Below are positions 6,682 to 61,117 of a stretch of DNA of 64,000 nt, one piece after another; within the stretch, counting starts at the first letter, position 1; the number at the start of each line of letters is the position of its first letter. The position numbers and the translations under genes are program-made. Under the pieces are notes generated by a model. That model ran no database searches. It was not told the origin of the DNA and saw only the letters and a list, made by a program, of their open reading frames with translations. Location: assembly GCA_018668695.1 (NCBI GenBank), contig JABJBS010000322.1, positions 5,718 through 69,717 on the forward strand, in the 5' to 3' direction. This stretch comes from Deltaproteobacteria bacterium. Lineage in GTDB: Bacteria; Myxococcota; XYA12-FULL-58-9; JABJBS01.

Positions 6682-9159
6682 TCATTCCCCGGTAAAGAGC
6701 TCAATACGCAACCGGCCTGAAAAAGAGCCGGATACCTGCAGGCTTCCTGTGCCGTCGCCAGAGCTCAGTTCAATACTTTGGCCCGCCTCATCAAGAGCCA
6801 GATAAAGGGCGTTTCCATCCATGCACATGGTGTCAGATTCACTGGCGCAGTTTCCTAGAGCCGCGCCGCCTAGCTGCATGGCTCCGGTTCCCAGTGCCGA
6901 CCCGGAAAACACATAGGAGATCTGACCAAAACTTGGCTCCGAGAGAGTACCCGCATCATCGCCGCCTGGAACCAGTCTCAGGGTAACCTCCTCCATCACC
7001 GCGGGCGCAGCATTGATGTCAGCCGCCACCCCATCGGCAAATTGCGCGGTGGTGTCATAATTCTCGCTTAACAAGGCAAGCACCGAACCGCCCCGAATAA
7101 AAACAATGGCATCCTCGGCTCCAACATCACTGACCGTAACGGTTCCTGTTTGAGCCACCGGCGAGAGTGCATCCACAGAGTTCCAGCGATGCCAAGTACC
7201 ACTGGGAAGCTTCACACTCCGGCTTGTCACACCTTCTTCAACTATCGGCGCCACCAAAAGATTATTACCAACCAAAAATGCGTCATCCACATCAAAGAGC
7301 GCGCTTGGGTCGACTTCGTTCCACCACACTGGGCGCACTGCAGGTGCCCCCTTGTTGACCGCTTCGTCTACAACTTGCGTCCAATACGGCAAGAGTCTTT
7401 GGTGCCATTGGCCATACTTACGGTAATGATTCAACGTATCCTCGTTCGAACTCCACTGAAGATTCGGGGCCGGTGTTCCTGAATGATGCGTACGCATAAA
7501 CGGAGTAAACGTTTCAAGCGTTACCCAACGCGCCCAGAGTTCATAAGTGCGGATCGAAGAACCAAAGCTTGTGTACCCGCCGATATCCGAATGCGTAAGA
7601 GCGATGCCTGATAGACCAGCAGAAAGATACAAACGTGGCACACTTCCTAAACCATCATTTCGGTCAAACGTAACCAATTGATCCCCAAGCCACATGATGT
7701 GCGTATGAGCGCTGATACCCGTGTAACCAGAACGATTAAAAATTGCGAAATCACCACCGGGTCGTTTCATTTCCCAAAATGCTCTTCCCGCTTCCGCCCA
7801 CAAAAGGGGGTATTCGTTATGCACTTCAAACCCGGAACGGCCATCCCCCATGACTGCATCCAGCGGCAAGGACTCACCATAATCATGCATCCAGCCATCG
7901 ATGCCCTTATCTACAGCTCGGCCTAGATAACCCCAAAACCAATCTAGCGACCCATCAACCGTCATATCATAATAGGACGGTGGCTCACCGAAGGGGAACT
8001 CTAGTTCAATGGGGTGACCGTCTTCATCACTCGCTAGAAAGCCGCCTTCAACGCCCTCAACAAAGACTTGGGTATCGCTGGCCACCATTGGGTTAATGTA
8101 GGTTAAAAACTTAAAGCCCATATCGTGTAGAGTTGTCGCCAATCCCTCTATGTCTGGATAGAGGTCGGGATCTTCTTCCCAATCGTACGTCAGGTGTTCA
8201 CCACCCATCGCTATTTCCTTACCAATCCAGTCCTCGGCCCACAGCGCACTTGCCGGGATATTATTCTCACGAGCCATTCTGGCCGCATCAATCAGAATTT
8301 CAGGACTGCCGAAGGTGTCAATCCAAGGACCGTATGTCCAGCGGTTCACCGGCCGTGCCCTTCCTGTTTCCGCAGTATACGTTTCCATCACCTCTTTAAC
8401 CGAGTCACCTGGGTAAATTCTCATTTTGAATTCTTTGGAAAAAATCTCAAGGCGGAAATGACCTGCGCTCTCACACATCTCGTATTCACTGCGCCAAGTG
8501 GTATCAAGCTGCACCCCAAGAGGCCGGCTCATCATCACGAACGGCACCGGAGCATAACTTTGATAATGGCTGCCGCTTAAACCGAAAACCACGGGCTCCT
8601 CACCCCGGTTTGCTTTACCGTTACCTTGTTCCTGAACCCACACCGGCACCCGATGGCCGCGGTGTTCAATGCTTACCTGAGCGCCCAAGCCAAAGAATTT
8701 GTCAGCCTCCAAACAATTGAAAGTCATCGCCAAGCGGTCGTTGGTCTCGTGCGTCCAAGTAATCACGACATGGCCGTCTTCAATGGCTACACTTCCGGAT
8801 GCAGCGTCGCCCAACTCAAAGCTTAGTACATCATCATCTACAGAATGGTCCGTCACGGTCAGAGCGCTGTAATCACCAAAGAGATCGTTAAAAGCGTAAG
8901 TCCCGTAGACCTCTTCAATCCGGACTCGATCCGTAAGCGCTGCAGCGAAAGGTGCATAAGCCTCGCCTGGGCGCTCATCGGCGTCCAACGTGGTAACGCC
9001 GCTGTTGGAAACGAGGACTTCGTTGCCACTATGGCTAACCACGAGGCCACGGTCATCGGTCAGTTCAACACGAATGTCCCCGCTCTCTAAAACCGGGTCG
9101 GAAGAACAAGCTGCTAAGAGGATAAAAACAAAAGGCAGATAAGTCGGTGTCTTGTGCAT
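6682..9159 (-). CDS. Glycoside hydrolase family 31 (alpha-glucosidase-like) lipoprotein
   Basis: Lipobox LLAACSS. GH31 catalytic-region motifs KGIDGWMHDYGE and WLGDQ, plus WAEDWIGK. 825 aa. Confidence 0.7.
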   Translation of the reverse strand: MHKTPTYLPFVFILLAACSSDPVLESGDIRVELTDDRGLVVSHSGNEVLVSNSGVTTLDADERPGEAYAPFAAALTDRVRIEEVYGTYAFNDLFGDYSALTVTDHSVDDDVLSFELGDAASGSVAIEDGHVVITWTHETNDRLAMTFNCLEADKFFGLGAQVSIEHRGHRVPVWVQEQGNGKANRGEEPVVFGLSGSHYQSYAPVPFVMMSRPLGVQLDTTWRSEYEMCESAGHFRLEIFSKEFKMRIYPGDSVKEVMETYTAETGRARPVNRWTYGPWIDTFGSPEILIDAARMARENNIPASALWAEDWIGKEIAMGGEHLTYDWEEDPDLYPDIEGLATTLHDMGFKFLTYINPMVASDTQVFVEGVEGGFLASDEDGHPIELEFPFGEPPSYYDMTVDGSLDWFWGYLGRAVDKGIDGWMHDYGESLPLDAVMGDGRSGFEVHNEYPLLWAEAGRAFWEMKRPGGDFAIFNRSGYTGISAHTHIMWLGDQLVTFDRNDGLGSVPRLYLSAGLSGIALTHSDIGGYTSFGSSIRTYELWARWVTLETFTPFMRTHHSGTPAPNLQWSSNEDTLNHYRKYGQWHQRLLPYWTQVVDEAVNKGAPAVRPVWWNEVDPSALFDVDDAFLVGNNLLVAPIVEEGVTSRSVKLPSGTWHRWNSVDALSPVAQTGTVTVSDVGAEDAIVFIRGGSVLALLSENYDTTAQFADGVAADINAAPAVMEEVTLRLVPGGDDAGTLSEPSFGQISYVFSGSALGTGAMQLGGAALGNCASESDTMCMDGNALYLALDEAGQSIELSSGDGTGSLQVSGSFSGRLRIELFTGE

Positions 9160-9217
9160 GCGTAAAGTTACCGCGACATGCTAGAAAAAATAAAGGTAAG
9201 AGAAGTGTGTTTATAAC

Positions 9218-9778
9218 TTACTTTTGCGTGAAAAGGTCGCGGAGCATCAGCCTCTCTGGCTCTGTCCCAGGTTTCTGGTTTTCAACCTGGACTTGCTGCA
9301 ACGCCTCCTCTGCAGGGCCCAGGGTCCAACAGGATTCAACTTCGAGAGTTTCAAGAAAATCTGGTGAATCATTTTTCGGACAAATATCTCGGTACTCGCC
9401 AAGCTCGCCCGCTTCATCTTCATCGATCCATCGTAGCGGTAGCCCTTGAGAACGGCATACATAGGGCCGGTGCTCGTATATTCGGCAACTGCCTGCATCA
9501 TTTAAAAATGCACACTTACCGACCGGGTGCGGGGTGCCGGACGTCAGAAGGTCACCGTAATGCGCCTTGATAACAACCGCCTCTACCTTAAAAACTGTTA
9601 GCTCGTCTTGGCAACAATCACTGCAACCGTCCCCGCATTTGAGCTGGTTTTCGTGCTCCCAATTCAATGGGTTTAAGGCTGAATCCACGTCGCGGTGGTA
9701 CTGCTCGATGATGGGTAATAGCGTATTATTCAAGTGTGAGCTCCTTGTGCAGCATGGATTTACACAATCACGTTGCAA
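9218..9778 (-). CDS. YkgJ-family zinc/iron-chelating domain protein (CxxCxxCC)
   Basis: CGDGCSDCC ... C.FL...GSCRIYEHRPYVCR pattern matching the putative Fe-S/Zn-chelating domain family. Confidence 0.6.
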   Translation of the reverse strand: MQRDCVNPCCTRSSHLNNTLLPIIEQYHRDVDSALNPLNWEHENQLKCGDGCSDCCQDELTVFKVEAVVIKAHYGDLLTSGTPHPVGKCAFLNDAGSCRIYEHRPYVCRSQGLPLRWIDEDEAGELGEYRDICPKNDSPDFLETLEVESCWTLGPAEEALQQVQVENQKPGTEPERLMLRDLFTQK

Positions 9779-20371: not shown

Positions 20372-21055
20372 TCAATCCCAATTAGGAACCGGTCTTCCCG
20401 CCAGCTCATAAAAAAGCGACCCGTCATAAAACTTAGCAAGCCGTTCCCGGGTGAGTACTTGGGTCTCTGTTCCATTTACTTCCATCGGCTCGCCAGCAAT
20501 CTTCAACAAAATAGGTAGTTCGAGCTGCGCCAGCGCGCTGCCGAAGAAGCTTTCTCGATTACGAGTCAGAAAGTCGGAGATTTCATCGCCGTCGAGCGCA
20601 CCATCGTTGTTTTTATCAAAACGAGTAAACAGCTCTTCAAACTTCTTGGGATCAAACTCGCCATTGGCATCGAAAACGTCTGAGTCTGAATCGTGCTTCG
20701 ATTTTTGAATTCGGCTTAAATCGATGGTGAGCGCAGGATAACCAGCAACCATCGACGCAATCACAAAATTAACCGCAGCGGCTCCGGCATAACCCTTGAG
20801 GCCATCCACTCCGAGCTCTGCGAGACGCTCGCGAGATTCCCCTACGGTGATTTTTCCGTTGCCATTGGCATCAAAAAATCCAACGTGTTTAGCCAACGCC
20901 GTCGTTTGATGCTTACCCGGGGATGGGCGTGGGCCTTCGTAGGTGTCGAACGGGGTGGATGCCGGCGATGCCGAGCTGACTGAAGGTTCGGCCGCTGCTG
21001 CGCTTGGTATAAAAGAGGCGGCGTGGGCCGTAGAACTGGATGAGACGATAGGCAT
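20372..21055 (-). CDS. Caleosin-family (plant/fungal peroxygenase-like) EF-hand protein with Ala/Ser/Pro-rich N-terminal extension
   Basis: Collinear with Arabidopsis caleosin: KHVGFFDANGNGKITVGE (EF-hand plus conserved heme His), IQKSKHDSDSDVFDANGEFDP (second conserved His), FYDGSLFYELAG. Second canonical EF loop DKNNDGALDGDE. SD GGAGA 5 nt upstream. Confidence 0.7.
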   Translation of the reverse strand: MPIVSSSSTAHAASFIPSAAAAEPSVSSASPASTPFDTYEGPRPSPGKHQTTALAKHVGFFDANGNGKITVGESRERLAELGVDGLKGYAGAAAVNFVIASMVAGYPALTIDLSRIQKSKHDSDSDVFDANGEFDPKKFEELFTRFDKNNDGALDGDEISDFLTRNRESFFGSALAQLELPILLKIAGEPMEVNGTETQVLTRERLAKFYDGSLFYELAGRPVPNWD

Positions 21056-27219: not shown

Positions 27220-27708
27220 TTATGGGCACTCTTCCAGCGATTCCATAGCAGCCCGCTGAGTTGGAGAAACCCACTGTAAAGCCGAACGATTCCACCATTT
27301 TTGAGGATTGTCTTTTTGGGCGCCTGCCCGCAAGCGAGTACTTAAAATAGGTTGAATCTGAATCACCGGCTCCTCATAAGGATGGGCGCAAAATAGAGCT
27401 TCTACGACGGTAGAGAGGACCGAGTCATTTTGAGGCACCACAAAGGAGACCTCATCACACGGAACTTCAATCAATCCGAGCTTTCCCGAACATGCATTGA
27501 CCATGGGCTCAAACTGCTGCGTTCCTGAACGATGGCGAAAGGCAACTTTTTGATAGTCCCCGTACTGAAGCGAGTCTACTTGCAAAACAGCTTGGAGAAC
27601 TTCATCAACATTTTCAGGCGGAATTTGAACGCGAACTTGGTAGGACGACACCACTTCGGCGCTCGGTGTTTTGAGGTGTATTTTATTTTCTGGGCTTAGA
27701 GAGGTCAT
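27220..27708 (-). CDS. Hypothetical protein, possibly PII/Nif3-C-terminal-like (COG3323-like)
   Basis: HPYEEPV motif as in Nif3/YqfO C-terminal and PII-like small proteins. Weak. Confidence 0.4.
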   Translation of the reverse strand: MTSLSPENKIHLKTPSAEVVSSYQVRVQIPPENVDEVLQAVLQVDSLQYGDYQKVAFRHRSGTQQFEPMVNACSGKLGLIEVPCDEVSFVVPQNDSVLSTVVEALFCAHPYEEPVIQIQPILSTRLRAGAQKDNPQKWWNRSALQWVSPTQRAAMESLEECP

Positions 27709-27847: not shown

Positions 27848-29782
27848 TTAGGCTAAAACTTTAAAAAGCGGCTTTTGAGACTTAACCCCTTTAAGCTCAA
27901 AATCACCGGCGTATTCCGTCTCTTGAAGTAAACCCTCAGCCACGGCTCCAGAGACATAAACCGAACCGGGCTCACACGCTGATTCTATCCGAGCCGCAAT
28001 GTTCACAGTGTGACCAATGGCCGTATAGTCGGCGCGTTTGTCTGAGCCGAAATTACCGACAACCGCCGGGCCTTGATGAATCCCAATTCTCATCGAAAGC
28101 TCGGGATAACCCTTCTCTGCACACCGTTTTGTAAAGACCTGCATCTTCTCTTGCATCGCTAAACCGCAGCTTACCGAGCGCTCACGTTGCTCCTGAGTAC
28201 TCATCGATTTAGGCGCCCCAAAGATGACCATCACCGCGTCGCCAATAAATTTATCGATGGTTCCGCCATGCTCAAAAATCACATCACTCATCACACTTAA
28301 GTAATCATTCAAGAGTTCCGTGATGACCTCTGCACCATACTGCTCACAGGTGGACGTAAATCCTGCCAAGTCCGAAAATAGGATGGTAATGTTACGGCTA
28401 TGGGGTGCTTCATCCATTGTAATCTCTTTAGCCAAGAGTTCATCTACGAGTTGAGGCGGGAGGTAGCGATTCATAATATGGGCAGATAAGAGCTGCTCAG
28501 CTTCGGCATGGTCTTTCTCTTTTTCGAGAACCTGCAGTTTGTCTGCCAAGGCAAAGGAAAGCAGAACAATTTCCGCTGCAGCTCCCAATTGAAATGCATA
28601 ATTTGTGAGAACATTAGCCTCTACCAAACCTACGGTCTTTAAAACGAGGACAGCTTCTCCAATCAATAACATGCCCCACGATGCTAAGTAATAACGTGCA
28701 GGGTGATACCCTTGCCGGACCACACAGAGCGCCGCTGTTATCCAAACAACAATCATACAAACAGCCAACACAACGGTGCTTATGAGAACCACGCGGTTTG
28801 ATAAAACGAAGGCCCCGACCAAAAGGCTCAAAGACAAATAGGTAAGGCCACGTGCTATTAGAGCCAAGCGAGGCAGGCGCTCACGCATTTGCAAGAAAGA
28901 ATAGGTAAATAAGTTTCCGAATAGTGAAAGCGTAATGAGAGCTAGAGAGAGGCCTTGGTTAACCCAGTAAGGAGAGTCCGGCACGAAGAACTCACTCCAG
29001 ATACCATTGCCACAGACCGCCGCCCATCCAAGCGAGAGTACGTAGAACAAATAGTAGAGATGGCTTCGCTCTCGATTAAGAAGATAAATAAAGAGATTGT
29101 AAAAAAAAGTGAGTAAGACAATCCCATAAAACATGCCGATGACCAGCCGAAAGTCCCGCTCAGACTTGCGCAAGGCGTCCAAGGTAAGAACCGCTAATGG
29201 GAGCTGAATGGAGCTTGAGGATTCAACCCTTAAAAGAACAGTGGAGGTCTTTCCGTAGGAGGTCTCGAGTGGGAAAACAAAATTGTGATGTAGAATTGCT
29301 CGGTTGTTAAACGGCAGTATATCGCCGCCGCCTAAGTGCAGCACCCCGCCATCCGCATCGACTTGGTAAAAATCAATTTGGTCTAAATAAGGGTGCCCCA
29401 ACTCCAAGACCCATGTCTTGGCCAAGGGTGTCCTTACGCGAAAGTCAAAACGTAGCCAGTATGCTGACTCACTGAGCCCAAATTGGGGAACCTCTTTGTC
29501 AGCGATCTTCCAAAGCCCTGAACGCACGGGTGACTGGACATCTGAAAGAGTGAAGAGACCTTCTTCGTCCTCGAGCGTGTAGAGATGCCCCAAGAGCGTT
29601 TGCTGCTCCGTTGAACCATCTATAACCAGAGCTTGGGCGAAAACCTGCCCGGGCAAAGCACAAGCTGCCCATACGACAACTAAAAGCTGCAGATAGAGAT
29701 TGGTACTCCTGGGTTCACAAACTGTCTGTCTTGGGTTCACACTTGAGCTTATTGATTTTTCGAGTCGATCCCAAGAGAACAA
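27848..29782 (-). CDS. Receptor-type class III adenylate/guanylate cyclase (7TMR-DISM extracellular and 7TM domains plus CHD)
   Basis: Signal peptide, periplasmic domain, 7 TM helices. C-terminal cyclase domain ILFSDLAGFT...HGGTIDKFIGDAVMVIFGAP...IGIHQGPAVVGNFG. Confidence 0.8.
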   Translation of the reverse strand: MFSWDRLEKSISSSVNPRQTVCEPRSTNLYLQLLVVVWAACALPGQVFAQALVIDGSTEQQTLLGHLYTLEDEEGLFTLSDVQSPVRSGLWKIADKEVPQFGLSESAYWLRFDFRVRTPLAKTWVLELGHPYLDQIDFYQVDADGGVLHLGGGDILPFNNRAILHHNFVFPLETSYGKTSTVLLRVESSSSIQLPLAVLTLDALRKSERDFRLVIGMFYGIVLLTFFYNLFIYLLNRERSHLYYLFYVLSLGWAAVCGNGIWSEFFVPDSPYWVNQGLSLALITLSLFGNLFTYSFLQMRERLPRLALIARGLTYLSLSLLVGAFVLSNRVVLISTVVLAVCMIVVWITAALCVVRQGYHPARYYLASWGMLLIGEAVLVLKTVGLVEANVLTNYAFQLGAAAEIVLLSFALADKLQVLEKEKDHAEAEQLLSAHIMNRYLPPQLVDELLAKEITMDEAPHSRNITILFSDLAGFTSTCEQYGAEVITELLNDYLSVMSDVIFEHGGTIDKFIGDAVMVIFGAPKSMSTQEQRERSVSCGLAMQEKMQVFTKRCAEKGYPELSMRIGIHQGPAVVGNFGSDKRADYTAIGHTVNIAARIESACEPGSVYVSGAVAEGLLQETEYAGDFELKGVKSQKPLFKVLA

Positions 29783-29808
29783 GAATCTATTGACCTATTA
29801 ACTGATTC

Positions 29809-30714
29809 TCAGCCCTCTTTGCCACGCCCTCTCCAGTAACCCGCAAGGGCAATACCGGAAAGATTGTGCCAGAGGCTAAAAATTGCCCCAGGTAAAGCGG
29901 TGGCAGCGCTGAAAAAGGAGGTCGCCAAAGAGACCCCAAGGCCAGAATTTTGCATGCCCACTTCGATGGCCAAGGTTCGCCGGTCTTGCTCAGTGCAGCC
30001 AAGAAATCCTGCAGCTGTGTAGCCCAAAAATAGTCCCGAGAGGTTGTGTAGAATAACCGCCAACATCACAAGCCACGGGAAAGTCAGAAGCATCGTTTGA
30101 TTAAGCGCCACGATAATGCCGATCACAAAACTAATCGCAACCATCGAGATCACTGGGAAGACCTGGAGCACCGAGTCGATGCGGCCAACCAAAAATCGGC
30201 GTAATACAATACCATCAAAAACGGGGAAGAGGACAATCCAGAATACTGATTTCATCATGCCCCACATATTCACATCGACAGTTTGGGAAACGAGTGCATC
30301 GACCCACAAGGGCGTGAGAAACGGCGCAAGAACGGTTGAGGCAAGAGTCATGCAAACAGAAAGAGCGATATTAGCGCCGGCCAAATAGACAATCACATTG
30401 GAAGCGGTCCCGCCCGGACAAGCCCCCACTAGCACCAGCCCCACAACCATCTCATCGGGTAAACCAAGCGCCGCTCCCAAGGCGACCGCAAGCAAAGGCA
30501 TAAGCGTGTACTGCATCGTCAGCCCAGCCAGTACCAGCCGCCGGTGCTCCCACACTTTCTTAAAGTCATCCACCTCAAGGGTTAGCCCCATGCCAAACAT
30601 GATGACGCCGAGCAGCCAAACGATAGATGGTTTCGCCCAAATGAAGAGAGAAGGCGCCGCCAATGCAGCCGCCGACATCAAAAGAGCAGTCGGTAAAAAG
30701 AGGTTTCTTGCCAT
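29809..30714 (-). CDS. Bile acid:sodium symporter (BASS) family transporter
   Basis: 301-aa polytopic protein. GLTLEVDDF, LVGACPGGTASN, GMQNSGL motifs of the BASS/SBF family. Confidence 0.8.
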   Translation of the reverse strand: MARNLFLPTALLMSAAALAAPSLFIWAKPSIVWLLGVIMFGMGLTLEVDDFKKVWEHRRLVLAGLTMQYTLMPLLAVALGAALGLPDEMVVGLVLVGACPGGTASNVIVYLAGANIALSVCMTLASTVLAPFLTPLWVDALVSQTVDVNMWGMMKSVFWIVLFPVFDGIVLRRFLVGRIDSVLQVFPVISMVAISFVIGIIVALNQTMLLTFPWLVMLAVILHNLSGLFLGYTAAGFLGCTEQDRRTLAIEVGMQNSGLGVSLATSFFSAATALPGAIFSLWHNLSGIALAGYWRGRGKEG

Positions 30715-30768
30715 GCCCGCAATTAGCGCAAGGTACGGCCAATGAAAAGCGCTATTGGCGGATCTAGC

Positions 30769-32016
30769 CTACGACTCGCTGGGTGCTTCTTCCAGCGGGC
30801 AATAAAGCACCACGGGTTGCTCCCGGCCTCGAATCGGAACTTTTGCCACCGAGCGCCAATGAAAAGCTTCACCAGAACGAAGCCTCGTTTCATCAGAGAC
30901 CAAGATCGGTGTTTTCTGATCCTTCGTCAACTGCTCAATGCGGGCCGTCAGATTGACCGTATCACCGATCACCGTGTAATCCCGGCGCTCAGCTGAACCA
31001 ACATCCCCCAGGACCGCAGGGCCACTGTGAATCCCAATGCCCACCGAAAACTCTGCTTCACCGCGACTGCTCCTAAGTGTGTTGAGTTCTGCAAGTTCGT
31101 TCAACATGCCCATGGCACAAGCTACGGCCGATGTGGCGCTGTTCTGGTCTTCGTTATGCCCCCCAAAATAAGCCAGGATTCCATCGCCCATAAATTTATC
31201 CAAGGTTCCCCCGTGGGCGAAAATGATAGTGACCATCGCTTCGAAGTACTCATTGAGGTGAGTCACCAAAGTACCAGGATCCATGGTCTCAGCCAGCTTG
31301 GTAAAACCCCGAATATCCGCGAAAAGAACAGTGATATGACACCGCCGACTTTCAGTACCCTCCTGGGCAATCTGGGCCGCTACCGCCGGAGAAAAATAGC
31401 GCGCAAGTCGTGAACGCGCCTCCTCCTCAAAGTGAATCCGATGAATCAAACGGTGCTGATAGGCCACGGTCATCATACCGATGCCGCCAGCAAAAAAGAT
31501 GAGTAAGGCATCTGTTAAAATAAATTGGGTGGGGAAATCGATAGCAGCTTCGAGGTAAACCAACGAGCCGATGCCCGCAATGGTCACTGCGGCAATCGTC
31601 GTGCGCCGAAGCGTTAATATCGCGATGAGTAAAATAACGAGAATAAGCGCCATGGCCACGCCAAATGATCGAACGTGCCGACCGGTTTCAATCGCAAGTT
31701 CGTACTGCATCCAAAGTGCAAAAGGTAGGTCCACCACCGCGAGAAAAAGAGTCGACGGAACTCGGATGCCTGAATATTTTCGGTAGCAAAATAAAACAGT
31801 TGCTGCGAGCGCAAGGTAGACCAGTAGGTAAGGTATTTGTTGGCGATAGCTGGAGAGCTCGGAGAGAGCACTGAAGAGAAGACTCAAGCCCAACCACACC
31901 AGAGCCCCAATCACCCGTATCTTAAGGACTGTATCAGCGAGCGTCTGGCGTTGCCGGTCGATGGCTTGCCGGACTTGCTCGGAGAATTCTGTTGTTTTTC
32001 GATTCGACCAGTTCAC
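30769..32016 (-). CDS. Membrane-anchored class III adenylate/guanylate cyclase (6TM plus CHD)
   Basis: Six N-terminal TM helices. VLFADIRGFT...HGGTLDKFMGDGILAYFG...IGIHSGPAVLGDVGS. Confidence 0.8.
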   Translation of the reverse strand: MNWSNRKTTEFSEQVRQAIDRQRQTLADTVLKIRVIGALVWLGLSLLFSALSELSSYRQQIPYLLVYLALAATVLFCYRKYSGIRVPSTLFLAVVDLPFALWMQYELAIETGRHVRSFGVAMALILVILLIAILTLRRTTIAAVTIAGIGSLVYLEAAIDFPTQFILTDALLIFFAGGIGMMTVAYQHRLIHRIHFEEEARSRLARYFSPAVAAQIAQEGTESRRCHITVLFADIRGFTKLAETMDPGTLVTHLNEYFEAMVTIIFAHGGTLDKFMGDGILAYFGGHNEDQNSATSAVACAMGMLNELAELNTLRSSRGEAEFSVGIGIHSGPAVLGDVGSAERRDYTVIGDTVNLTARIEQLTKDQKTPILVSDETRLRSGEAFHWRSVAKVPIRGREQPVVLYCPLEEAPSES

Positions 32017-32079
32017 TCGCTTAGTTCCTTACTTCTAAACTATAGGCAAGTTGGTTGGAAAGACGAAATCTTGGTCAAT

Positions 32080-33489
32080 CTAATCAAGTAATCTTTGCTT
32101 GCGCCTCAAGAGGTAAACCGTGAATACCAGTAAAAGAAGTTCCAAAGGGGCCCGATTTGAGGCCGAGCAACCCGAGGTCTCGTCAAGATCGTCGGCAGAG
32201 TCAGATGCGTCTTCGACAAACTCCACCCATTCAGCGCGGAAAGCCTCCGCACCGTCAAGCTTTGCCGGTTCAAGCACAGGCGTATCCCCACAAAGGTCCA
32301 TGTTGTCGTCTCTACAGTTCACTTGGAATTCAATGTTGTGGTCGATGCTCCAGCTCTTATCACCCACGCCGCTTACGGTCCCGCTGATAGTACTCGTATA
32401 ATACCCGCCCGGTACAAGATTCTCGGTAGGCTTCAGGCGCATGAGACGTGTCCAATTGCCGCCCCATGCGTGACTTCGCTGGTCAAACCCGACTTCATCG
32501 CCGGAGCTGTCTTTCCATGTAGCTGTCAACTCTTCCTGGGCAATGCCACTTGAAAACAAATACGACACCCAACTGTCGGGAGCGCTGGCATCATGACTAC
32601 GAAGTCTTCTCGAAGACTCTGGAAAAGAAAACATCACGACATCCGAATCGGAGTAATCCCCGTGCATCCTCTTCCAGAGGCCCTCCATATAAAACATGGT
32701 TGGATAAATTTCTGAATGCAGGCTGCCGGGAATATCCGGATTCATATAGTTGTCTCGTGTCCAAATCAGATCATCGAGTAGGCCGTTGGTCGCAACTGTT
32801 GCTAAGAGAGGACCCGCGTCTTCATCGATGTATAGATCGGTCATGGTCTTCATAGATGATAGAAGGTGGTCTTCAACAATCTCTTCGTCAAACACACCCG
32901 AAGCATTGTAAAGGCTTATGAGCGCATCTACTGGAATGTCTCCATCTGGGACGGTAGCCAGCAAAAGGTCCATCACCAAAAAGCCATCGGAGGCTGGATC
33001 TGCCTCGGATTGCCCCTGGCCATCGTGATGACCAACTTGGTCCAAAAAGAGAGAGTCAAAGACCTCATCTTGGTATCCGTGAGCAGCGCAACCCAGTAAA
33101 AACGCGATGCGCTTACGTGATTCAAGGGTTCTCCAAGGCGGCGGATCATTCTCGCGGACCCACTGAGCAAAGGATTCGATAAAAGGTGGCCAGTGGCTAT
33201 ACTCTGCAAACTGCCGCGCCAGCTCGGGGTATTTGAGTCCTGGATAATATCCAATATCGGGGTAGGCCGCGCCAAAGAGCAGAGAGTTAAAAACATGCTC
33301 ATTGGCAAGGAAAGTACGAAGCTCCCCTTCAGGTAAGTTTTCGGCCGCCCACGCGGTCACTTGGATATGTCCAAGTCCCCCATGCGCCTCGGCACGCGTT
33401 GCGCTAAAGTTTATCGACATAAACAATACCGATGCCATCAAGAGCTGATTCGAAGTGCTACGAAGTGTTGTCATAAAATTCCTTATCAC
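32080..33489 (-). CDS. Secreted protein with MYXO-CTERM sorting signal (possible Zn-dependent phospholipase-C-like N-terminus)
   Basis: Signal peptide. C-terminal GCSASNRAPLELLLLVFTVYLLRRKQ has the MYXO-CTERM pattern (GC, hydrophobic helix, Arg cluster). N-terminal His-rich HGGLGH..W segment. Confidence 0.6.
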   Translation of the reverse strand: MIRNFMTTLRSTSNQLLMASVLFMSINFSATRAEAHGGLGHIQVTAWAAENLPEGELRTFLANEHVFNSLLFGAAYPDIGYYPGLKYPELARQFAEYSHWPPFIESFAQWVRENDPPPWRTLESRKRIAFLLGCAAHGYQDEVFDSLFLDQVGHHDGQGQSEADPASDGFLVMDLLLATVPDGDIPVDALISLYNASGVFDEEIVEDHLLSSMKTMTDLYIDEDAGPLLATVATNGLLDDLIWTRDNYMNPDIPGSLHSEIYPTMFYMEGLWKRMHGDYSDSDVVMFSFPESSRRLRSHDASAPDSWVSYLFSSGIAQEELTATWKDSSGDEVGFDQRSHAWGGNWTRLMRLKPTENLVPGGYYTSTISGTVSGVGDKSWSIDHNIEFQVNCRDDNMDLCGDTPVLEPAKLDGAEAFRAEWVEFVEDASDSADDLDETSGCSASNRAPLELLLLVFTVYLLRRKQRLLD

Positions 33490-33861
33490 CTAGCCCACAT
33501 TAGAGATCTTATCGAACAACGCCCCAAGAGCAACAAAGAACCGAATCCTTGGAACCCCATTTCTCTATCTCTCACAGGTGCTGTAAAAATAGTTGGCACC
33601 ACGATCATGTTAGCCCCGTTTTTGAAGGAGTTCTTATGCGTCAGCCGAGATTTTGCTTTTTCAATCAGCAATGGTGTCAATGGCGGCGGGGTCTTTGTAA
33701 ATCTTGCTCCCAGCCGCTACACACTCAACCATCTCAACTTACCCCAGAGCTGTACACCCATGCTTGGTTGGGGCGAGGCCAGCTCAATGTCATTTGAAGT
33801 CATGGCCAATCGAGTCACTTATGCTCGGGTGGAGTGTATGGAGCCCAGTTCGCCTTAAGCT

Positions 33862-34359
33862 TCAGTCAGGGCTTGCTCCTTGCGCCACCGAGACGCGTTC
33901 GACCTTTAAAAGAGACTCCAAAACCGCCGGGTCGATGGAAACCAAGAGTCCTCGCTGACCGCCATTGATGTAAATCAAGCCAAGCTCGAAGATACTCTCT
34001 TGCGTATAAATGGGCAGCCTCTTTCGAGTTCCAAAAGGAGACGTTCCGCCAACGAGATAGCCACTGTGCTTTTGAGCTGTCTCCGGCTTTGAGGCATTTA
34101 CATTTTTTACCCCGAGATGGCGCGCCAACGCACGGGTCGACACTTCCTTGTCCCCATGCATTAAGACAATCATTGGATTGGCGAGATGGTCTTCCATGAC
34201 CAAGGTTTTGATGACTGAGTGTTGCTCTACCTTCAGCTCTCGGGCCGACACCTGAGTACCCCCACGGGCTTCATATTTATACCGATGAATTTCAAAATCC
34301 ACGCCGGCAGCCTTCAGCATACGCAACGCACCTGTGCTTGGCATTTTCTGCTTTCCCAT
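33862..34359 (-). CDS. ybaK: Cys-tRNA(Pro)/Cys-tRNA(Cys) deacylase YbaK
   Basis: Collinear with E. coli YbaK (ALRMLKAAGVDFEIHRY ~ AVKLLEKNKISFQIHTY, KTLV, GYLVGGTSPFG). SD GAGGAG upstream of the chosen ATG. Confidence 0.75.
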   Translation of the reverse strand: MGKQKMPSTGALRMLKAAGVDFEIHRYKYEARGGTQVSARELKVEQHSVIKTLVMEDHLANPMIVLMHGDKEVSTRALARHLGVKNVNASKPETAQKHSGYLVGGTSPFGTRKRLPIYTQESIFELGLIYINGGQRGLLVSIDPAVLESLLKVERVSVAQGASPD

Positions 34360-34469
34360 GATCTCCTCAGCAACGTTCATTCTTAGTCGATAAACCGCTG
34401 CTATCATTCAACTTGTCTCGTACTATCGAACATTTAAGGCAAGCGCGAATGTACATTTTTTTGTCGGCC

Positions 34470-34485
34470 TGTGACCGAGATCACA
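34470..34485. promoter_or_regulatory. CRP/FNR-type consensus site TGTGA-N6-TCACA
   Basis: tGTGAccgagaTCACA, a perfect match to the cAMP-receptor-protein half-site consensus, in the divergent ybaK / hypothetical-REC intergenic region. Confidence 0.35.
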
Positions 34486-34518
34486 TCAGATTATGCTCGA
34501 CAAGGTCATAGTAAGGGC

Positions 34519-34926
34519 ATGAAACGTTTAGATGAGGTCATGCTCCCCAAAGGTCGCAAACGTGTCATTTACGAACACACTTGGCGGCCTGACTTTGTTG
34601 GTGAAGCTTTAACAATTGAACTAGAAAAAGGGCAGGAAGTTGTTTCCCTCGAGTTCTATTCATCCGAACACGGCATCGTAAAATGGGTTCGCAAGCAGGG
34701 CCTCCTTCCAAGCCACAGCTGGGAATGCGACAAAAATCCGCTGGGTACACTTCACGGACAACATTACCCTACAGTACTGCTAAACGGAGCTGAGCCATTT
34801 TCAAACACCCTCAAGATTGTACAAGATGTACTCAAGCACCCATGCCTTGAGCACCTACGCTCGACACTTGGCCCACAAGCCCTTCAAGAAAAAAATTCCA
34901 TCGCGTCCAAAGGTCAGCGCTGGTAA
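34519..34926 (+). CDS. Hypothetical protein
   Basis: ORF with SD TAAGGG before the ATG at 34519. The longer GTG-initiated version would overlap the CRP-like site. Confidence 0.4.
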   Translation: MKRLDEVMLPKGRKRVIYEHTWRPDFVGEALTIELEKGQEVVSLEFYSSEHGIVKWVRKQGLLPSHSWECDKNPLGTLHGQHYPTVLLNGAEPFSNTLKIVQDVLKHPCLEHLRSTLGPQALQEKNSIASKGQRW

Positions 34927-34936
34927 CAATCGGTTC

Positions 34937-34948
34937 TTAGAAATTTCT
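34937..34948. promoter_or_regulatory. Perfect 12-bp palindrome TAGAAATTTCTA upstream of the receiver gene
   Basis: Self-complementary 12-mer about 55 nt upstream of the REC start. Confidence 0.25.
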
Positions 34949-35001
34949 ACCATCCATAGACAAACCCTGATTCAATAGACCCTCAGTGATTGGGGAGAAC
35001 T

Positions 35002-35535
35002 ATGCCTAAGCCGAAACTGCTTGTTGTTGATGATTCCGAGATTTGCCGCCAACCTTTTCGCAAAGTGGGAACAGATAAACAAGGTAATATCTTGGTAGAG
35101 GTCTTAGAAGCCAAAACCGGCGAAGAGGGGCTGGAGCTCTTTAAGAAGCACCCTGGCATTCTTTACGCGGTCGTGGATGTTCACCTGCCTGGAATAGACG
35201 GATTTGAAATGCTTAACGCCTGCCGACGTTTCGACCTCGACAGATTCAATCAGACCACTGTTTTTATGAGTTGCTCGGATTCAGACGACCATCACCATGA
35301 ATCACCCGACTTTCCAACACCCACATGGATACTTAAGCCGGCCGACCCCGAACTCTTTAACCGTTTTTTATTAAGCGATGTGCGGATGAAGATGGCATTG
35401 CAAACCGCTTCACTCACCGACACACAACGAACACATCTACGAAAGCTTTTTGAGGATGCGACGAACCTAGACGAGTCTCAGCACCAAGCTTTAGTCAGTT
35501 TGGTCAAATCACTCACCGCCACTGACGAAGAATAA
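35002..35535 (+). CDS. Response regulator receiver (CheY-like) protein with C-terminal extension, no known output domain
   Basis: LLVVDDSE, phospho-acceptor context VVDVHLPGIDGFEM. SD GGGGAGA. Confidence 0.7.
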   Translation: MPKPKLLVVDDSEICRQPFRKVGTDKQGNILVEVLEAKTGEEGLELFKKHPGILYAVVDVHLPGIDGFEMLNACRRFDLDRFNQTTVFMSCSDSDDHHHESPDFPTPTWILKPADPELFNRFLLSDVRMKMALQTASLTDTQRTHLRKLFEDATNLDESQHQALVSLVKSLTATDEE

Positions 35536-35536
35536 G

Positions 35537-36175
35537 TCAGGCGTGCTTTTGTGCGATCATGATTCCGTCGCGAACCGGTAAGAGTAAGTTATGAACGCGT
35601 GGGTCATCGAATACGAGCGAATTCATACGTGCTAACGCGTGATCAGACTCTTCAACGGGCTCTAAAACCGCCCCACTCCAGAGCGCGTTATCAAGCATGA
35701 TGAAGCCGCCCGGCCGCGTTATTTCTACAAGGTGATTGTAGTAACTCATGTAGTTCACTTTATCTGCATCAATAAAGCTGAGATCGATAGGGCCTTTAAT
35801 TTGTGGCAATGACTCAAGTGCGGTTCCCTGCATTAAAGTGATTTTGTCACCCCATGGGCATCGCTGAAAATACCGGCGCGCCATGTCTGCATGCTTTGGG
35901 TCATACTCAAGAGTAATCAATTCGCCGTCTTCAGGGAGTACCTCTGCCATCTTCATGGAGCTGTAACCCGTAAACGTACCTACTTCGACGATTCGTTTTG
36001 CACCGCTGCTGCGAATCATCATTTGTAGAAAGCTGCCCACCAAGTGGCCCGCAATCATCTGAGGGCATTCCATATTCGCGTAGGTCTCGTCGCGAAGCTC
36101 TTTAAAGAGAGCATGCTCCGGGGTTGAGTGAGCCAACGCGTATTCTTCAATCTTTTCGTCTACTAATCTTGGCAC
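35537..36175 (-). CDS. Class I SAM-dependent O-methyltransferase (family 3, caffeoyl-CoA OMT-like)
   Basis: VEVGTFTGYSS SAM motif, FIDADK, collinear with CCoAOMT-type OMTs. Confidence 0.8.
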   Translation of the reverse strand: MPRLVDEKIEEYALAHSTPEHALFKELRDETYANMECPQMIAGHLVGSFLQMMIRSSGAKRIVEVGTFTGYSSMKMAEVLPEDGELITLEYDPKHADMARRYFQRCPWGDKITLMQGTALESLPQIKGPIDLSFIDADKVNYMSYYNHLVEITRPGGFIMLDNALWSGAVLEPVEESDHALARMNSLVFDDPRVHNLLLPVRDGIMIAQKHA

Positions 36176-36658
36176 GTAAAACCCCCTTGAATGTGAGCGC
36201 CCTTATTGATCAGCTCAACCCGAAAGTTCAAGTAGGAAAAACAATAAATCACCAATTGTATAGCTGAGCTAAATTCTCGTATTTGTATTTACTTCCCTAT
36301 TAAGTCCCCGCTTCCCAAAACGAATCATTTCATTCTAAACGATTAGTCCGTCCGCCGTCAGATTTCCGACGAGAGAAGCTCTTACCTGCGGGGAAATCAA
36401 TGATTCGCACGACAGATACGAAAACACAGTAATGTTAGAGCCTTAGAAGTATTCTGGAGGTTTTCGAAGAAACAATCGTTCACGCATTATGCCCATCTTT
36501 CTCCGAAATCTATCAGCTCCTATCTTCATCGTACCGACACCGTGTGACATGCGCCTACTTTATAAATCTCAAAATAGGTCGCAAACCTTGGTCATCCCGA
36601 CACCGCGCCTCTAAGACGACGAAGTCCTGACGATCCATTTACCCTAACGACCGCAACA

Positions 36659-36674
36659 CGTGATCCAGATCACA
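36659..36674. promoter_or_regulatory. Second CRP-like site cGTGA-N6-TCACA upstream of the cyclase-STAND gene
   Basis: cGTGAtccagaTCACA (9/10 to consensus), about 100 nt upstream of the 36779 start, inside a 600-nt intergenic region. Confidence 0.3.
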
Positions 36675-36778
36675 CTCAGCGTCCCATTTTGACCTAAAAC
36701 GGTTCAAAGCCTTATGGCATCAGGCTTGCAGTAGTTCATACGAAGACAAGAAACCACGACGCACCAGGGGAGAGAGTG

Positions 36779-53631: not shown

Positions 53632-53719
53632 TGGCGGAGGAAGAGGGATTCGAACCCCCGGTAGGTCGCCCTACGCTGGTTTTCAAGACCAGTGCCTTCG
53701 GCCGCTCGGCCATTCCTCC
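53632..53719 (-). tRNA. tRNA-Ser (anticodon UGA)
   Basis: Reverse complement folds as a cloverleaf: acceptor GGAGGAA/TTCCTCC, anticodon stem CTGGT/ACCAG with loop CTTGAAA, long variable arm, GGTTCGAATCC T-loop, encoded CCA. Confidence 0.85.
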
Positions 53720-53791: not shown

Positions 53792-53883
53792 GGAGTGGTG
53801 GCCGAGCGGCTGAAGGCGGTGGCTTGCTAAGCCATTGTACTGGGAGACCGGTACCGGGGGTTCGAATCCCCCCCACTCCGCCA
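53792..53883 (+). tRNA. tRNA-Ser (anticodon GCU)
   Basis: Acceptor GGAGTGG/CCACTCC, anticodon loop TTGCTAA, long variable arm TGTACTGGGAGACCGGTACC, GGTTCGAATCC T-loop, encoded CCA. Confidence 0.85.
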
Positions 53884-59917: not shown

Positions 59918-61117
59918 GTGCCATTGAACGAAAATTTCGGTGATTACATGCTTTTGGAGCAGGTCGGCATCGGCGGCATGGCTGAGGTCTACTTGGCGCG
60001 CCGTACGGGTATGGCGGGCTTTGAAAAAGACATCGTCATCAAGCGCATTCGACCTCACCTCACCGAGCAAAGAGCCTTCGTCAATATGTTCCTTGGCGAG
60101 GCAAAACTTGCCGCTCAGCTCATCCACCCCAACATTGTGCACATCTATGATCTCGGCCGGATCGAGGACAGTTACTTCATCGCCATGGAGTATGTAGCCG
60201 GGCAAGATATGAGCGCCATCATCCCCAAAATCAAAGAGCGGGGCATTCATCTACCTGTAGAATATGCATTAAAAATAGGTAGTTCCGTGTGCGAGGCCCT
60301 TAATTACGCGCACAACCAAAACGATACCCAAGGCAAGCCGCTGCAAATTGTTCACCGCGATGTTTCACCGGAAAATATCCGAATCGCCTGGACTGGAACC
60401 GTCAAAATTCTCGATTTCGGCATCGCCAAAGCGGCCACTCAAATGCACGAAACCAAGGCCGGGGAAATCAAAGGCAAGCTCTGTTACATGTCGCCCGAAC
60501 AGGTGCTGGGAAAAGAAGTCGACAAGCGCTCGGACATCTTTGCATTGGGCTGCGTTCTTTACGAAGCGCTTACAAGTTTTAAACTTTATTCTGGCAGTAA
60601 CGATCTCGATATTATGAATCAGATCATCGATGGCCGAATCTACCCGCCGAGCTACTTCCGAGATGAAATCCCGGCCCGAGCCGAAGAAATTATCATGAAA
60701 GCGCTTCAGAAGGATCGCAAGAAGCGTTACCAAACTGCACAAGAAATGCAGATGGATATCGATGACTTTCTAGCCCAAAACGAGTTCACCCCGTCGAATA
60801 TGCACTTGGCCAACTTTCTCAAGCAGCAATTCAAGGAGGAACTGGCCGACGAGCAACAACGTAGGCGGATGGACACTCCAACATCGTCCAAGCAGCCAAA
60901 CAGTCCCCCACCGCCGCCCAGTATTTCCGCGGTCACATCCCACTCAACACCCTCGAGCCAGCGCCTGGCCCGTCAGCTCACACCCGGAACAGCCGAACTT
61001 CAGCTTACGGTCCCCAACGATACCCTTGAGCGCCTAGAGCGCCTGGCTGGCAAGAGAAAACTTAGCCGTGAAGAAGTACTTCGCGACATCATTGAGCACT
61101 ATCTAAAGTACCACTGA
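59918..61117 (+). CDS. Ser/Thr protein kinase with C-terminal ribbon-helix-helix-like tail
   Basis: GTG start with SD GAAGGAGAG. Kinase subdomains GIGGMAEVYLA, VIKRI, HRDVSPENI, DFGIAK, SPEQ. Pro-rich linker, then LQLTVPNDTLERLERLAGKRKLSREEVLRDIIEHYLKY (RHH/CopG-like). Confidence 0.85.
   Translation: MPLNENFGDYMLLEQVGIGGMAEVYLARRTGMAGFEKDIVIKRIRPHLTEQRAFVNMFLGEAKLAAQLIHPNIVHIYDLGRIEDSYFIAMEYVAGQDMSAIIPKIKERGIHLPVEYALKIGSSVCEALNYAHNQNDTQGKPLQIVHRDVSPENIRIAWTGTVKILDFGIAKAATQMHETKAGEIKGKLCYMSPEQVLGKEVDKRSDIFALGCVLYEALTSFKLYSGSNDLDIMNQIIDGRIYPPSYFRDEIPARAEEIIMKALQKDRKKRYQTAQEMQMDIDDFLAQNEFTPSNMHLANFLKQQFKEELADEQQRRRMDTPTSSKQPNSPPPPPSISAVTSHSTPSSQRLARQLTPGTAELQLTVPNDTLERLERLAGKRKLSREEVLRDIIEHYLKYH

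Follow-up and report, generated by a model that had tools for sequence, protein, structure and literature searches.

The cyclases considered here resemble several described groups of signalling proteins. The 7TMR-DISM receptors, a family defined by Anantharaman and Aravind and exemplified by RgsP and SagS-type sensors, feed signals from a DISMED2 ectodomain and seven transmembrane helices (7TM) into an intracellular signalling domain, which in most relatives is a histidine kinase or a GGDEF domain. Bacterial 6TM cyclases, such as "adenylate cyclase 1" of Myxococcus/Stigmatella and Rv1625c/Cya of M. tuberculosis, contain a hexahelical membrane domain followed by one cyclase domain; the Rv1625c enzyme belongs to subclass IIIa. 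The class IIIb (sAC-like) enzymes, among them CyaC of Spirulina, are marked by a metal-binding Asp pair, a substrate Lys, transition-state Asn and Arg residues and Thr in place of Asp at the specificity position. Mycobacterial proteins of the Rv0386/Rv1358/Rv2488c type combine an N-terminal cyclase, a STAND/AAA NTPase, helical repeats and a C-terminal LuxR/GerE HTH. In Pycsar defence systems, a class III-type cyclase domain is accompanied by an adjacent effector. The membrane domains of Rv1625c-type cyclases have been described as lipid receptors (PMC12505454), and the hexahelical domains of related 6TM cyclases bind fatty acids/lipids and regulate the cyclase (PMC11606603, PMC12505454).

The DNA studied is a 64 kb window (the whole stretch that was analysed) from an uncultured marine bacterium labelled Deltaproteobacteria by NCBI, the nearest named relative of which is a Bdellovibrionales MAG. 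According to the Pfam search, the region 27848-39760 encodes a 7TMR-DISM cyclase (DISM cyclase), a BASS transporter, a 6TM cyclase, a stand-alone receiver and a cyclase-STAND-TPR protein (STAND cyclase). These results are in full agreement with the domain calls of the first-pass annotation, including three class III cyclases inside 12 kb: Guanylate_cyc (PF00211) was matched in three proteins (101.8, 86.5 and 95.8 bits; cut-off 21.9). A tblastn search with the three cyclase domains as queries found no further cyclase domain in the window, and the clustering of the three could be non-random. A fourth gene on the same strand as the two membrane cyclase genes, which was absent from the first-pass annotation, is located 63 nt upstream of the 6TM cyclase gene and encodes a Zn_dep_PLPC-like (PLC-like) protein. 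The features are listed in Table 1.

Table 1. Features of the cyclase region, with coordinates in the window
Feature	Coordinates	Strand	Evidence and remarks
162-aa protein	27220..27708	-	tentative PII-like; phmmer vs PDB
7TMR-DISM cyclase	27848..29782	-	Pfam 7TMR-DISMED2 1.9e-35, 7TMR-DISM_7TM 1.2e-41, Guanylate_cyc 4.3e-29
BASS/SBF transporter	29809..30714	-	Pfam SBF 1e-41
6TM cyclase	30769..32016	-	Pfam Guanylate_cyc 2.2e-24
Zn-PLC-like gene	32080..33489	-	Pfam Zn_dep_PLPC; first gene of co-oriented run
151-aa ORF	34471-34926	+	no family assigned
Receiver	34990..35535	+	Pfam Response_reg
Cyclase-STAND-TPR	36776..39760	+	Pfam Guanylate_cyc 3e-27, NB-ARC 5.3e-10, TPR_12/TPR_MalT
Alpha/beta hydrolase (PAF acetylhydrolase / PETase-like lipase)	39621..41015	+	Pfam PAF-AH_p_II 8.4e-11, PETase 1.3e-8

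The intergenic distances given earlier were correct, namely 54 nt between the 6TM cyclase and BASS genes and 26 nt between the BASS and DISM cyclase genes, counted from a TTG start at 29782. The start of the DISM cyclase is probably the GTG at 29740, which is used in public gene calls (630 aa) and gives a distance of 68 nt. The co-orientation and short gaps that had suggested an operon were confirmed; with the PLC-like gene included, the gaps are 63, 54 and 26/68 nt. Consensus-based promoter and terminator scans gave no terminator-like site between the genes, but their counts were no different from those in shuffled sequence and the consensus may not fit this organism. The DISM cyclase gene is followed after 139 nt by the gene for the 162-aa protein, which may be the last of the co-oriented run. 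In an Rfam search, neither a riboswitch nor any other RNA was detected near the cluster, and the only matches were two tRNAs at 53.6-53.9 kb.

Between the four-gene run and the STAND cyclase gene there are also genes for YbaK and an O-methyltransferase, together with the 151-aa ORF. The receiver gene starts 63 nt past this ORF on the same strand. Its product was assigned to PF00072 (33.8 bits, cut-off 30.2) and has a short C-terminal helical tail; D14/D15, D63 and K116 are present, so the stand-alone receiver reported between the cyclases has an intact phospho-acceptor pocket. The alpha/beta hydrolase gene is located downstream of the STAND cyclase gene on the same strand; in the public call it starts at about 39867, leaving a gap of ~106 nt. 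The PAF-AH-like hydrolase, a caleosin and FadL are lipid-related neighbours in the window. Note that the GC content is uniform across the region (~0.49-0.52), and horizontal acquisition was rejected on this basis.

Analysis of the catalytic domains revealed D457, K497, D501, T573, N580 and R584 in the DISM cyclase (630-aa numbering), D234, K274, D278, T348, N355 and R359 in the 6TM cyclase, and D44, K83, D87, D161, N168 and R172 in the STAND cyclase. All three domains therefore retain both metal-binding Asp residues, the substrate Lys and the transition-state Asn and Arg, and the catalytic residues are also kept in the orthologues or relatives of each. Loss of the Asp pair or of Asn/Arg had been named as the sign of pseudo-cyclases; with the complete catalytic set, the three proteins do not belong to this category. 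The substrate-specifying pairs are of the adenine type (K497/T573, K274/T348 and K83/D161), and the guanine pair Glu/Cys does not occur in them. Judging from these residues, all three are predicted to be active adenylyl cyclases making cAMP. The Lys/Thr pair places the DISM and 6TM cyclases in class IIIb, and Asp at the same position in the STAND cyclase sets it outside this class.

In line with these assignments, the DISM and 6TM catalytic domains are closest to Spirulina CyaC, and the STAND cyclase domain has its closest counterpart in trypanosome GRESAG4. The best PDB match of the DISM cyclase was CyaC 1wc1 (1.1e-41), with the catalytic motifs aligned, and that of the STAND cyclase domain was GRESAG4.3/4.1 (5e-27). 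Between them, the DISM and 6TM cyclase domains share 41% identity and neither is the nearest relative of the other; a recent tandem duplication was rejected on account of this identity and because each has closer relatives elsewhere. Both share the whole set of class IIIb residues with CyaC. However, the sensor modules are unlike those of CyaC, being 7TMR-DISM in one case and 6TM in the other. Thr at the specificity position predicts bicarbonate regulation (PMC3383692), and this makes the two membrane cyclases candidates for bicarbonate/CO2 modulation.

The DISM cyclase consists of a signal peptide, a DISMED2 ectodomain, the 7TM region and a class IIIb cyclase domain, in this order. Both receptor profiles were matched over their full length (PF07696, 122 bits; PF07695, 143 bits). 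Thus, the protein shares the ectodomain and the 7TM region with the 7TMR-DISM receptors and differs from most of them in having a cyclase output. The same DISMED2-7TM-cyclase architecture was found in other lineages at 26-30% identity. Orthologues of this cyclase are confined to a narrow lineage: they end at 57-62% identity, and the next relatives are at ~30%. A metagenome scan with the DISM cyclase was swamped by the generic 7TM motif and returned only 7TMR-DISM proteins of 23-36% identity and no close relatives; the 46 generic loci were used solely as a negative background for adjacency to BASS genes.

The 6TM cyclase has a hydrophobic N-terminal half, in which a crude hydropathy scan indicated five clear segments and one weaker one, followed by the Guanylate_cyc domain; an AAGGA motif is located 11 nt upstream of its GTG start. 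Over its full length it is 38-41% identical to myxobacterial proteins labelled "adenylate cyclase 1". It shares the domain order of the described bacterial 6TM cyclases and has a Lys/Thr (IIIb) catalytic domain. A neighbouring gene for a secreted PLC-like protein is a peculiarity of this lineage. This partner was assigned to Zn_dep_PLPC (34.8 bits, cut-off 26.8) and contains a signal peptide and a C-terminal anchor of the "SGC + hydrophobic helix + RRK" type. H36, H41, D78, H99, H137, D141 and H155 are invariant in four orthologues. A search of PDB by sequence and a search of NCBIfam gave no match for it. The protein is regarded as a putative secreted Zn-dependent phospholipase C / P1-nuclease-like phosphoesterase.

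For the STAND cyclase, NB-ARC was matched with 39.4 bits (cut-off 23.5). The Walker A sequence is GAGGIGKT, with K282, and D351 belongs to Walker B; among 41-51 relatives, no variation was seen at G279, G281, K282 or D351. The N-terminal cyclase, the STAND/AAA NTPase and the helical repeats are common to this protein and the Rv0386-type enzymes, whereas the C-terminal HTH of the latter is missing and the cyclase domain is nearer to GRESAG4 than to mycobacterial cyclases. The first-pass annotation had singled out the missing LuxR HTH. Indeed, neither GerE nor any HTH was matched by Pfam at E<=0.01, and none is among the top families in 41 relatives. However, this is not a distinctive feature: all of the 41 nearest full-length relatives sampled have the HTH-less form, with cyclase, AAA_22 and TPR in 41/41. 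The family is very large, with 35,921 cluster representatives at E<=1e-30.

The BASS protein was matched by SBF (143.2 bits, cut-off 24.3), and SBF and SBF_like covered its full length, a feature in common with the BASS family transporters ASBT_NM, PanS and plant BASS2/BASS6. A comparison with NCBIfam gave PanS, a ketopantoate/pantoate transporter, as the best match (273.4 bits, cut-off 400), and TIGR00841 reached 236.6 bits (cut-off 326.3). Both scores are below the curated cut-offs and hence do not allow a substrate to be named; bile acids are improbable. The "bile-acid-like" solute proposed earlier is thus not indicated. The protein is 55-60% identical to homologues across many phyla and is a widespread transporter of a Na+-coupled family, with small organic anions as its predicted substrates.

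A phmmer search of PDB with the 162-aa protein yielded 2gx8 (E 1.5e-3) and SA1388 (4e-3), with an HPYEEP motif in common. Modeling with AF2 from the single sequence led to a low-confidence model (pLDDT 54) with a bab-bab pattern, for which the top Foldseek matches were NIF3, PII, CPII and CutA, all with E above 1e-3. At this confidence the Foldseek search only hints at a PII-like fold, and the protein may tentatively be described as a stand-alone PII-like domain resembling the NIF3/YqfO insert.

To evaluate the conservation of gene order, the two source MAGs (GCA_018668175.1, GCA_018702995.1; loci L001/2) were compared with their closest relative (L058/9), the further relatives L003, L057, L060/61 and L062, and more distant homologues. 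The PLC-like, 6TM cyclase, BASS and DISM cyclase genes are contiguous only in the source MAGs (100% identity) and in the closest relative (85-94%), where the gaps of 54 and 68 nt have the same lengths (L058). In L003 (6TM cyclase 76%, BASS 82%, DISM cyclase 62%), 2.4 kb lie between the 6TM cyclase and BASS genes, including a MarR gene on the opposite strand and two small genes. Two gene pairs are nevertheless conserved within the lineage. The PLC-like gene adjoins the 6TM cyclase gene in L001/2, L058/9, L003 and L057; in the last of these (56/64% identity) the pair stands alone and the reading frames overlap by 4 nt. BASS-DISM cyclase adjacency was seen at 100, 94/85 and 82/62% identity. The two pairs are directly adjacent in the source genome and in its closest relative, and co-transcription of the four or five genes is therefore probable here.

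Outside these loci the pairings were not observed. No BASS gene adjoins the 6TM cyclase orthologues at 64-70% identity (L057, L060/61), and in L060/61 the cyclase gene occurs alone. No such pairing was found in the gene context of BASS homologues at ~60% (L004, L006), of DISM cyclases of the same architecture at 28-30% (L008-L010) or of 6TM cyclases at 39-41% (L083, L084), and BASS-cyclase adjacency was absent from the 46 generic 7TMR-DISM loci. None of 21 more distant PLC-like homologues (L062-L082) is directly adjoined by a 6TM cyclase gene; the sole cyclase domain in their flanks is located ~3 kb upstream in L066, and the contig of L062 ends just past the PLC-like gene. Among the remaining genes, the receiver gene is syntenic in L003, L058 and L062. 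L003 and L062 lack the STAND cyclase gene at the syntenic position, and it is not a conserved neighbour of the four-gene run. L058 has the gene for the 162-aa protein (81% identity), which was not seen after the DISM cyclase gene in L003.

The results are best explained by three separate cAMP sensors, each a single polypeptide of a known architecture, that do not form an integrated system; we estimate the probability of this reading at roughly 60%. The grouping around the transporter occurs only in close relatives, which points to a local gene arrangement and not to a new signalling system. The first-pass annotation had instead proposed that placing a BASS transporter between two sensor cyclases couples a transported solute to cNMP production. 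In such a module, the transported anion or the transport cycle would control cAMP synthesis by one or both membrane cyclases, with the transporter as a "trigger transporter" co-sensor. The shared strand, the short gaps with their lengths kept in L058, the BASS-DISM cyclase adjacency down to 82/62% and the membrane location of all three proteins are consistent with it. However, the sandwich is broken in L003 by the opposite-strand MarR insert, 6TM cyclase orthologues at 64-70% lack the BASS gene and the adjacency is absent in every more distant homologue examined. Moreover, the transporter is 55-60% identical to homologues of a housekeeping type in many phyla, and the DISM cyclase already has an ectodomain sensor of its own. 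The sandwich is therefore not supported as a functional unit; a module of this kind is unlikely, and solute-cAMP coupling via the BASS protein is unproven. An obligate heterodimer of the 6TM cyclase with the DISM cyclase would account for the proximity of their genes; class III cyclases are dimeric, and these two are membrane proteins of the same subclass encoded 1 kb apart. Yet in L057 and L060/61 the 6TM cyclase is not accompanied by the DISM cyclase, the two belong to separate transcription units in L003 and each has a full catalytic set, so that homodimers suffice; we consider a heterodimer very improbable.

The lipid-related features of the locus could be read as a lipid/organic-anion (or inorganic-carbon) cAMP operon, in which a lipid or head-group released by the PLC-like enzyme would be sensed by the membrane domain of the 6TM cyclase, the BASS protein would import a related anion and the PII-like protein would provide a nucleotide-binding output. 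This is a doubtful proposal, although the PLC-like-6TM cyclase pair is kept down to 56/64% with its 4-nt overlap, lipid binding by hexahelical cyclase domains is documented (PMC11606603, PMC12505454) and the lipid-related genes mentioned above lie nearby. An analogy with cyanobacteria is also at hand, where cAMP is sensed by SbtB, the PII-like partner of SbtA, a protein with the ASBT 5+5 fold (PMC8352866), and the 162-aa protein weakly resembles PII-like domains. Against it, the PII-like assignment is weak (E ~1e-3, pLDDT 54, no Foldseek match at E<=1e-3), the 162-aa gene does not follow the DISM cyclase gene in L003 and 0/21 distant PLC-like homologues lie directly beside a 6TM cyclase gene. 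Its fullest form, a previously undescribed module of predatory Bdellovibrionota/Myxococcota-like bacteria in which the PLC-like enzyme supplies the 6TM ligand and the BASS and PII-like proteins act as SbtA and SbtB, is slightly less probable still. An anti-phage or conflict function of the cluster or of the STAND cyclase alone (Pycsar-like or STAND/Avs-like), with a nucleotide as alarm signal, would fit the matches of the cyclase domains to PycC models, the STAND-TPR pattern-recognition architecture and the known fusions of cNMP cyclases to NTP-dependent conflict modules in multicellular/social bacteria (PMC7159879). However, the PycC matches reported by PADLOC reflect general class III homology, no PycTM/PycTIR or other effector model was matched in ten neighbouring proteins and Pfam found no cNMP_binding domain among the scanned window ORFs of 150 aa or more. 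The studied cyclases further differ from Pycsar in their elaborate sensor domains, and their Lys/Thr and Lys/Asp pairs, together with the similarity to CyaC and GRESAG4, indicate cAMP. There are no signs of a mobile element or a defence island, the GC content is uniform and the STAND cyclase family has a very large, housekeeping-like distribution. A Pycsar or other defence role was rejected for lack of an effector, as had been concluded for Pycsar at the outset, and defence in any form has hardly any probability.

Under the preferred reading of three independent sensors, the DISM cyclase would act as a homodimer in which the extracellular DISMED2/7TM receptor is coupled to the class IIIb catalytic domain, and the 6TM cyclase as a homodimer in which the hexahelical membrane domain is coupled to a second class IIIb domain. 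The STAND cyclase would be a homodimeric cytoplasmic switch: a ligand or partner would bind the TPR array, the STAND module would oligomerise in an NTP-dependent manner, and both events would place the N-terminal cyclase domains side by side. The BASS protein would be co-expressed with the cyclases with no indication of mechanistic coupling, and the STAND cyclase, the receiver and the genes between would be ordinary neighbours. Against this reading, conservation of the BASS-DISM cyclase pair down to 62% and of the PLC-like-6TM cyclase pair down to 56%, with overlapping frames, possibly goes beyond neutral synteny, and each pair may be functionally coupled.

With this analysis, a little-known marine lineage gains three adenylyl cyclases that are predicted to be active and have familiar architectures, and the locus illustrates that genes brought together recently and locally can look like a striking signalling cluster. 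The two lineage-conserved pairings are the only parts of the locus that could reward experiments. If functional, the pair of the PLC-like protein and the 6TM cyclase would be a natural bacterial test case for hexahelical domains as lipid receptors.

The ORF listing and Pfam search revealed all the cyclase, BASS (SBF-family transporter) and receiver genes that had been claimed in the first-pass annotation, and each protein belongs to an already known kind. A tblastn search with the three cyclase domains as queries found no further cyclase domain in the 64 kb window. The intergenic distances were also correct, namely 54 nt and, when counted from the TTG start of the DISM cyclase (7TMR-DISM receptor cyclase) at 29782, 26 nt; public gene calls start this gene at the GTG at 29740, giving a protein of 630 aa and a 68-nt gap to the BASS gene. 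The co-oriented run was described properly for the genes named, but a fourth co-oriented gene, encoding the secreted PLC-like protein, had been overlooked. A 151-aa ORF without a family match is kept together with the receiver in loci L003, L058 and L062 from other genomes and may therefore be its partner.

Positions of features in the window
Feature	Position	Strand	Characteristics
Caleosin gene	20372-21055	-	EF-hand
162-aa protein gene	27220-27708	-	139 nt downstream of DISM cyclase
DISM cyclase	27848-29782	-	7TMR-DISMED2, 7TMR-DISM_7TM, Guanylate_cyc (Pfam)
BASS transporter	29809-30714	-	SBF (Pfam)
6TM cyclase (hexahelical membrane cyclase)	30769-32016	-	Polytopic N-terminal half, Guanylate_cyc (Pfam)
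PLC-like gene	32080-33489	-	Zn_dep_PLPC-like (Pfam), secreted, 63 nt upstream of 6TM cyclase
151-aa ORF	34471-34926	+	63 nt upstream of receiver
Receiver	34990-35535	+	33.8 bits (Pfam); D14/D15, D63, K116 in place
Spacer	36176-36775		Between divergent O-methyltransferase and STAND cyclase genes
STAND cyclase	36776-39760	+	Guanylate_cyc, NB-ARC, TPR, HTH absent (Pfam)
Hairpin	39289-39320	+	12 bp, GC-rich, then T-rich run
PAF-acetylhydrolase-like gene	39621-41015	+
ENPP-type phosphodiesterase-Vps62 fusion	41456-43015	-
Peptidase_M91 gene	45992-46882	-	'Effector protein' domain
tRNA gene	53635-53719	-
tRNA gene	53792-53880	+
Ser/Thr protein kinase	59918-61117	+	C-terminal ribbon-helix-helix (CopG) domain
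Receiver-CheX protein	61199-62107	+	After kinase gene

The DISM cyclase matched Spirulina CyaC (1wc1; E 1.1e-41) with every catalytic motif aligned. The catalytic residues are D457, K497, D501, T573, N580 and R584 in this protein (630-aa numbering), D234, K274, D278, T348, N355 and R359 in the 6TM cyclase, and D44, K83, D87, D161, N168 and R172 in the STAND cyclase, for which the closest solved structures were those of GRESAG4.3/4.1, receptor cyclases of trypanosomes (5e-27). Orthologues and 41-51 family members retain these residues, and a pseudo-cyclase reading was therefore ruled out for all three. From their residues, all are predicted to be adenylyl rather than guanylyl cyclases. By their Lys/Thr pair the DISM and 6TM cyclases belong to class IIIb; in that class the Thr is taken to predict bicarbonate regulation (PMC3383692), which makes both enzymes candidates for it.

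Identical proteins were found in two MAGs (GCA_018668175.1 and GCA_018702995.1, NCBI label 'Deltaproteobacteria bacterium'), and the nearest named relative sharing local synteny was 'uncultured Bdellovibrionales bacterium' (L062). The PLC-like, 6TM cyclase, BASS and DISM cyclase genes are contiguous in the source MAGs (L001/L002, 100% identity) and in L058/L059 (6TM cyclase 89%, BASS 94%, DISM cyclase 85%), where the 54- and 68-nt gaps are identical to those of the window. In L003 (PLC-like 63%, 6TM cyclase 76%, BASS 82%, DISM cyclase 62%), the PLC-like-6TM cyclase pair is separated by 2.4 kb from the BASS-DISM cyclase pair. This spacer contains an opposite-strand MarR gene and two small genes (at the 6TM cyclase/BASS junction, 7660-9482: the MarR-family gene, a 63-aa ORF and a 236-aa opposite-strand gene), representing either an insertion in L003 or a deletion in the window. 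The conserved pairing of the PLC-like gene, upstream, with the 6TM cyclase extends to relatives as divergent as L057 (PLC-like 56%, 6TM cyclase 64%), where both genes overlap by 4 nt and are followed by an opposite-strand gene, BASS being absent; L060/L061 (6TM cyclase 70%) contain neither partner.

No pairings were found around BASS homologues of ~60% identity (Myxococcota MAG, 163-kb contig), DISM cyclases of the same architecture at 28-30% identity, 6TM cyclases at 39-41% identity or at 46 generic 7TMR-DISM loci. None of 21 PLC-like homologues (36-67% identity) had a cyclase gene directly beside it; the L062 contig stops just past the PLC-like gene, and L066 has a cyclase domain ~3 kb upstream. 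These arrangements, together with the lack of pairing further out, show that the conserved units are two gene pairs, PLC-like + 6TM cyclase and BASS + DISM cyclase, and that the single run formed by joining them is a recent, local arrangement. Thus, a BASS gene sandwiched between two cyclases is not a conserved design. Both pairings are confined to a narrow lineage and, to our knowledge, have not been described. Two distant DISM-cyclase homologue loci (L008, 12779-13869; L010, 3481-4785) have, one, a second cyclase ~5 kb off and, the other, a gene with cNMP_binding and HATPase_c_2 domains ~1.2 kb upstream, which suggests cyclase-rich genomes where such proximity is common.

The PLC-like protein has a signal peptide, and its C-terminal tail ('SGC + hydrophobic helix + RRK') looks like a sorting signal of the MYXO-CTERM type. 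A set of its His/Asp residues with the spacing of the PLC/P1-nuclease zinc site is unchanged in four orthologues; no PDB or NCBIfam match was found for the protein. More distant homologues come from Myxococcota and Bradymonadia MAGs. A 207-kb contig carrying one homologue of 42% identity (L072, CAMAXZ010000003.1) belongs to a MAG labelled Klebsiella pneumoniae, a label that looks doubtful because all the other homologues come from Myxococcota, Bradymonadia or Bdellovibrionales MAGs.

The STAND cyclase gene is divergently placed after a 600-nt spacer, unusually long for a compact region, with no ORF of at least 50 aa and no Rfam match; the divergent tRNA genes gave the sole Rfam matches in the window. 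In L003 and L062 this cyclase was not found beside the conserved O-methyltransferase/receiver block. An exhaustive search revealed 35,921 cluster representatives of its family at E<=1e-30, many colinear over ~900 residues. Guanylate_cyc, AAA_22 and TPR occurred in 41/41 sampled full-length relatives and GerE HTH was not among the families listed for them; the LuxR HTH is indeed missing, as first noted, but this is the rule in the family rather than a special feature of this protein. By analogy with STAND biology, the TPR array would recognise a ligand or partner, NTP would drive oligomerisation, and the N-terminal cyclase domains would form active dimers. The hairpin inside this gene, ~440 nt before its stop, was the top terminator-like match; promoter and terminator scans were uninformative.

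The caleosin, ENPP-Vps62, Peptidase_M91 and PAF-acetylhydrolase-like genes carry domains better known from eukaryotes or effectors and hint at a theme connected with lipids or with a host or prey. The kinase and receiver-CheX genes form a second signalling pair at the far end of the window.

The proposal that a BASS-transported solute is coupled to cNMP production is unlikely, although it keeps some weight because the BASS-DISM cyclase adjacency persists down to 62% identity. The BASS protein is one of a very large group that spans phyla, with 55-60% identity to proteins of Desulfovibrio, Myxococcota and others. Among curated families PanS, the transporter of ketopantoate/pantoate, scored highest, at 273 bits under a cut-off of 400. 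A small organic acid is more plausible as the solute than a bile acid. Less probable still than solute coupling is an integrated lipid/anion or inorganic-carbon module, whose links are all inferred. It is favoured by reports that hexahelical cyclase membrane domains act as lipid receptors (PMC11606603, PMC12505454) and that a cAMP-sensing PII-like protein controls SbtA, a bicarbonate transporter with the ASBT fold (PMC8352866). Sequence similarity between the 162-aa protein and the PII-like insert of NIF3/YqfO proteins is weak (E 1.5e-3), with an HPYEEP motif in common. Its low-confidence model (pLDDT 54) has a bab-bab fold, for which NIF3, PII, CPII and CutA ranked first, none at E<=1e-3; a small-ligand binder is possible. 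Its gene was not found downstream in L003.

A defence system is very improbable and poorly supported. PADLOC found no Pycsar effector, only PycC matches to the cyclase domains that reflect general class III homology, so the locus was rightly distinguished from Pycsar. No cNMP_binding, CRP or GAF domain was found in the Pfam-scanned window ORFs of at least 150 aa, which comprised all but a few overlapping or nested ones. An obligate heterodimer of the 6TM and DISM cyclases, likewise poorly supported, is just as improbable. We favour, with a probability of about 60%, three one-component cAMP sensors that work independently, with two of their genes in lineage-specific pairs that happen to abut and are probably co-transcribed here.
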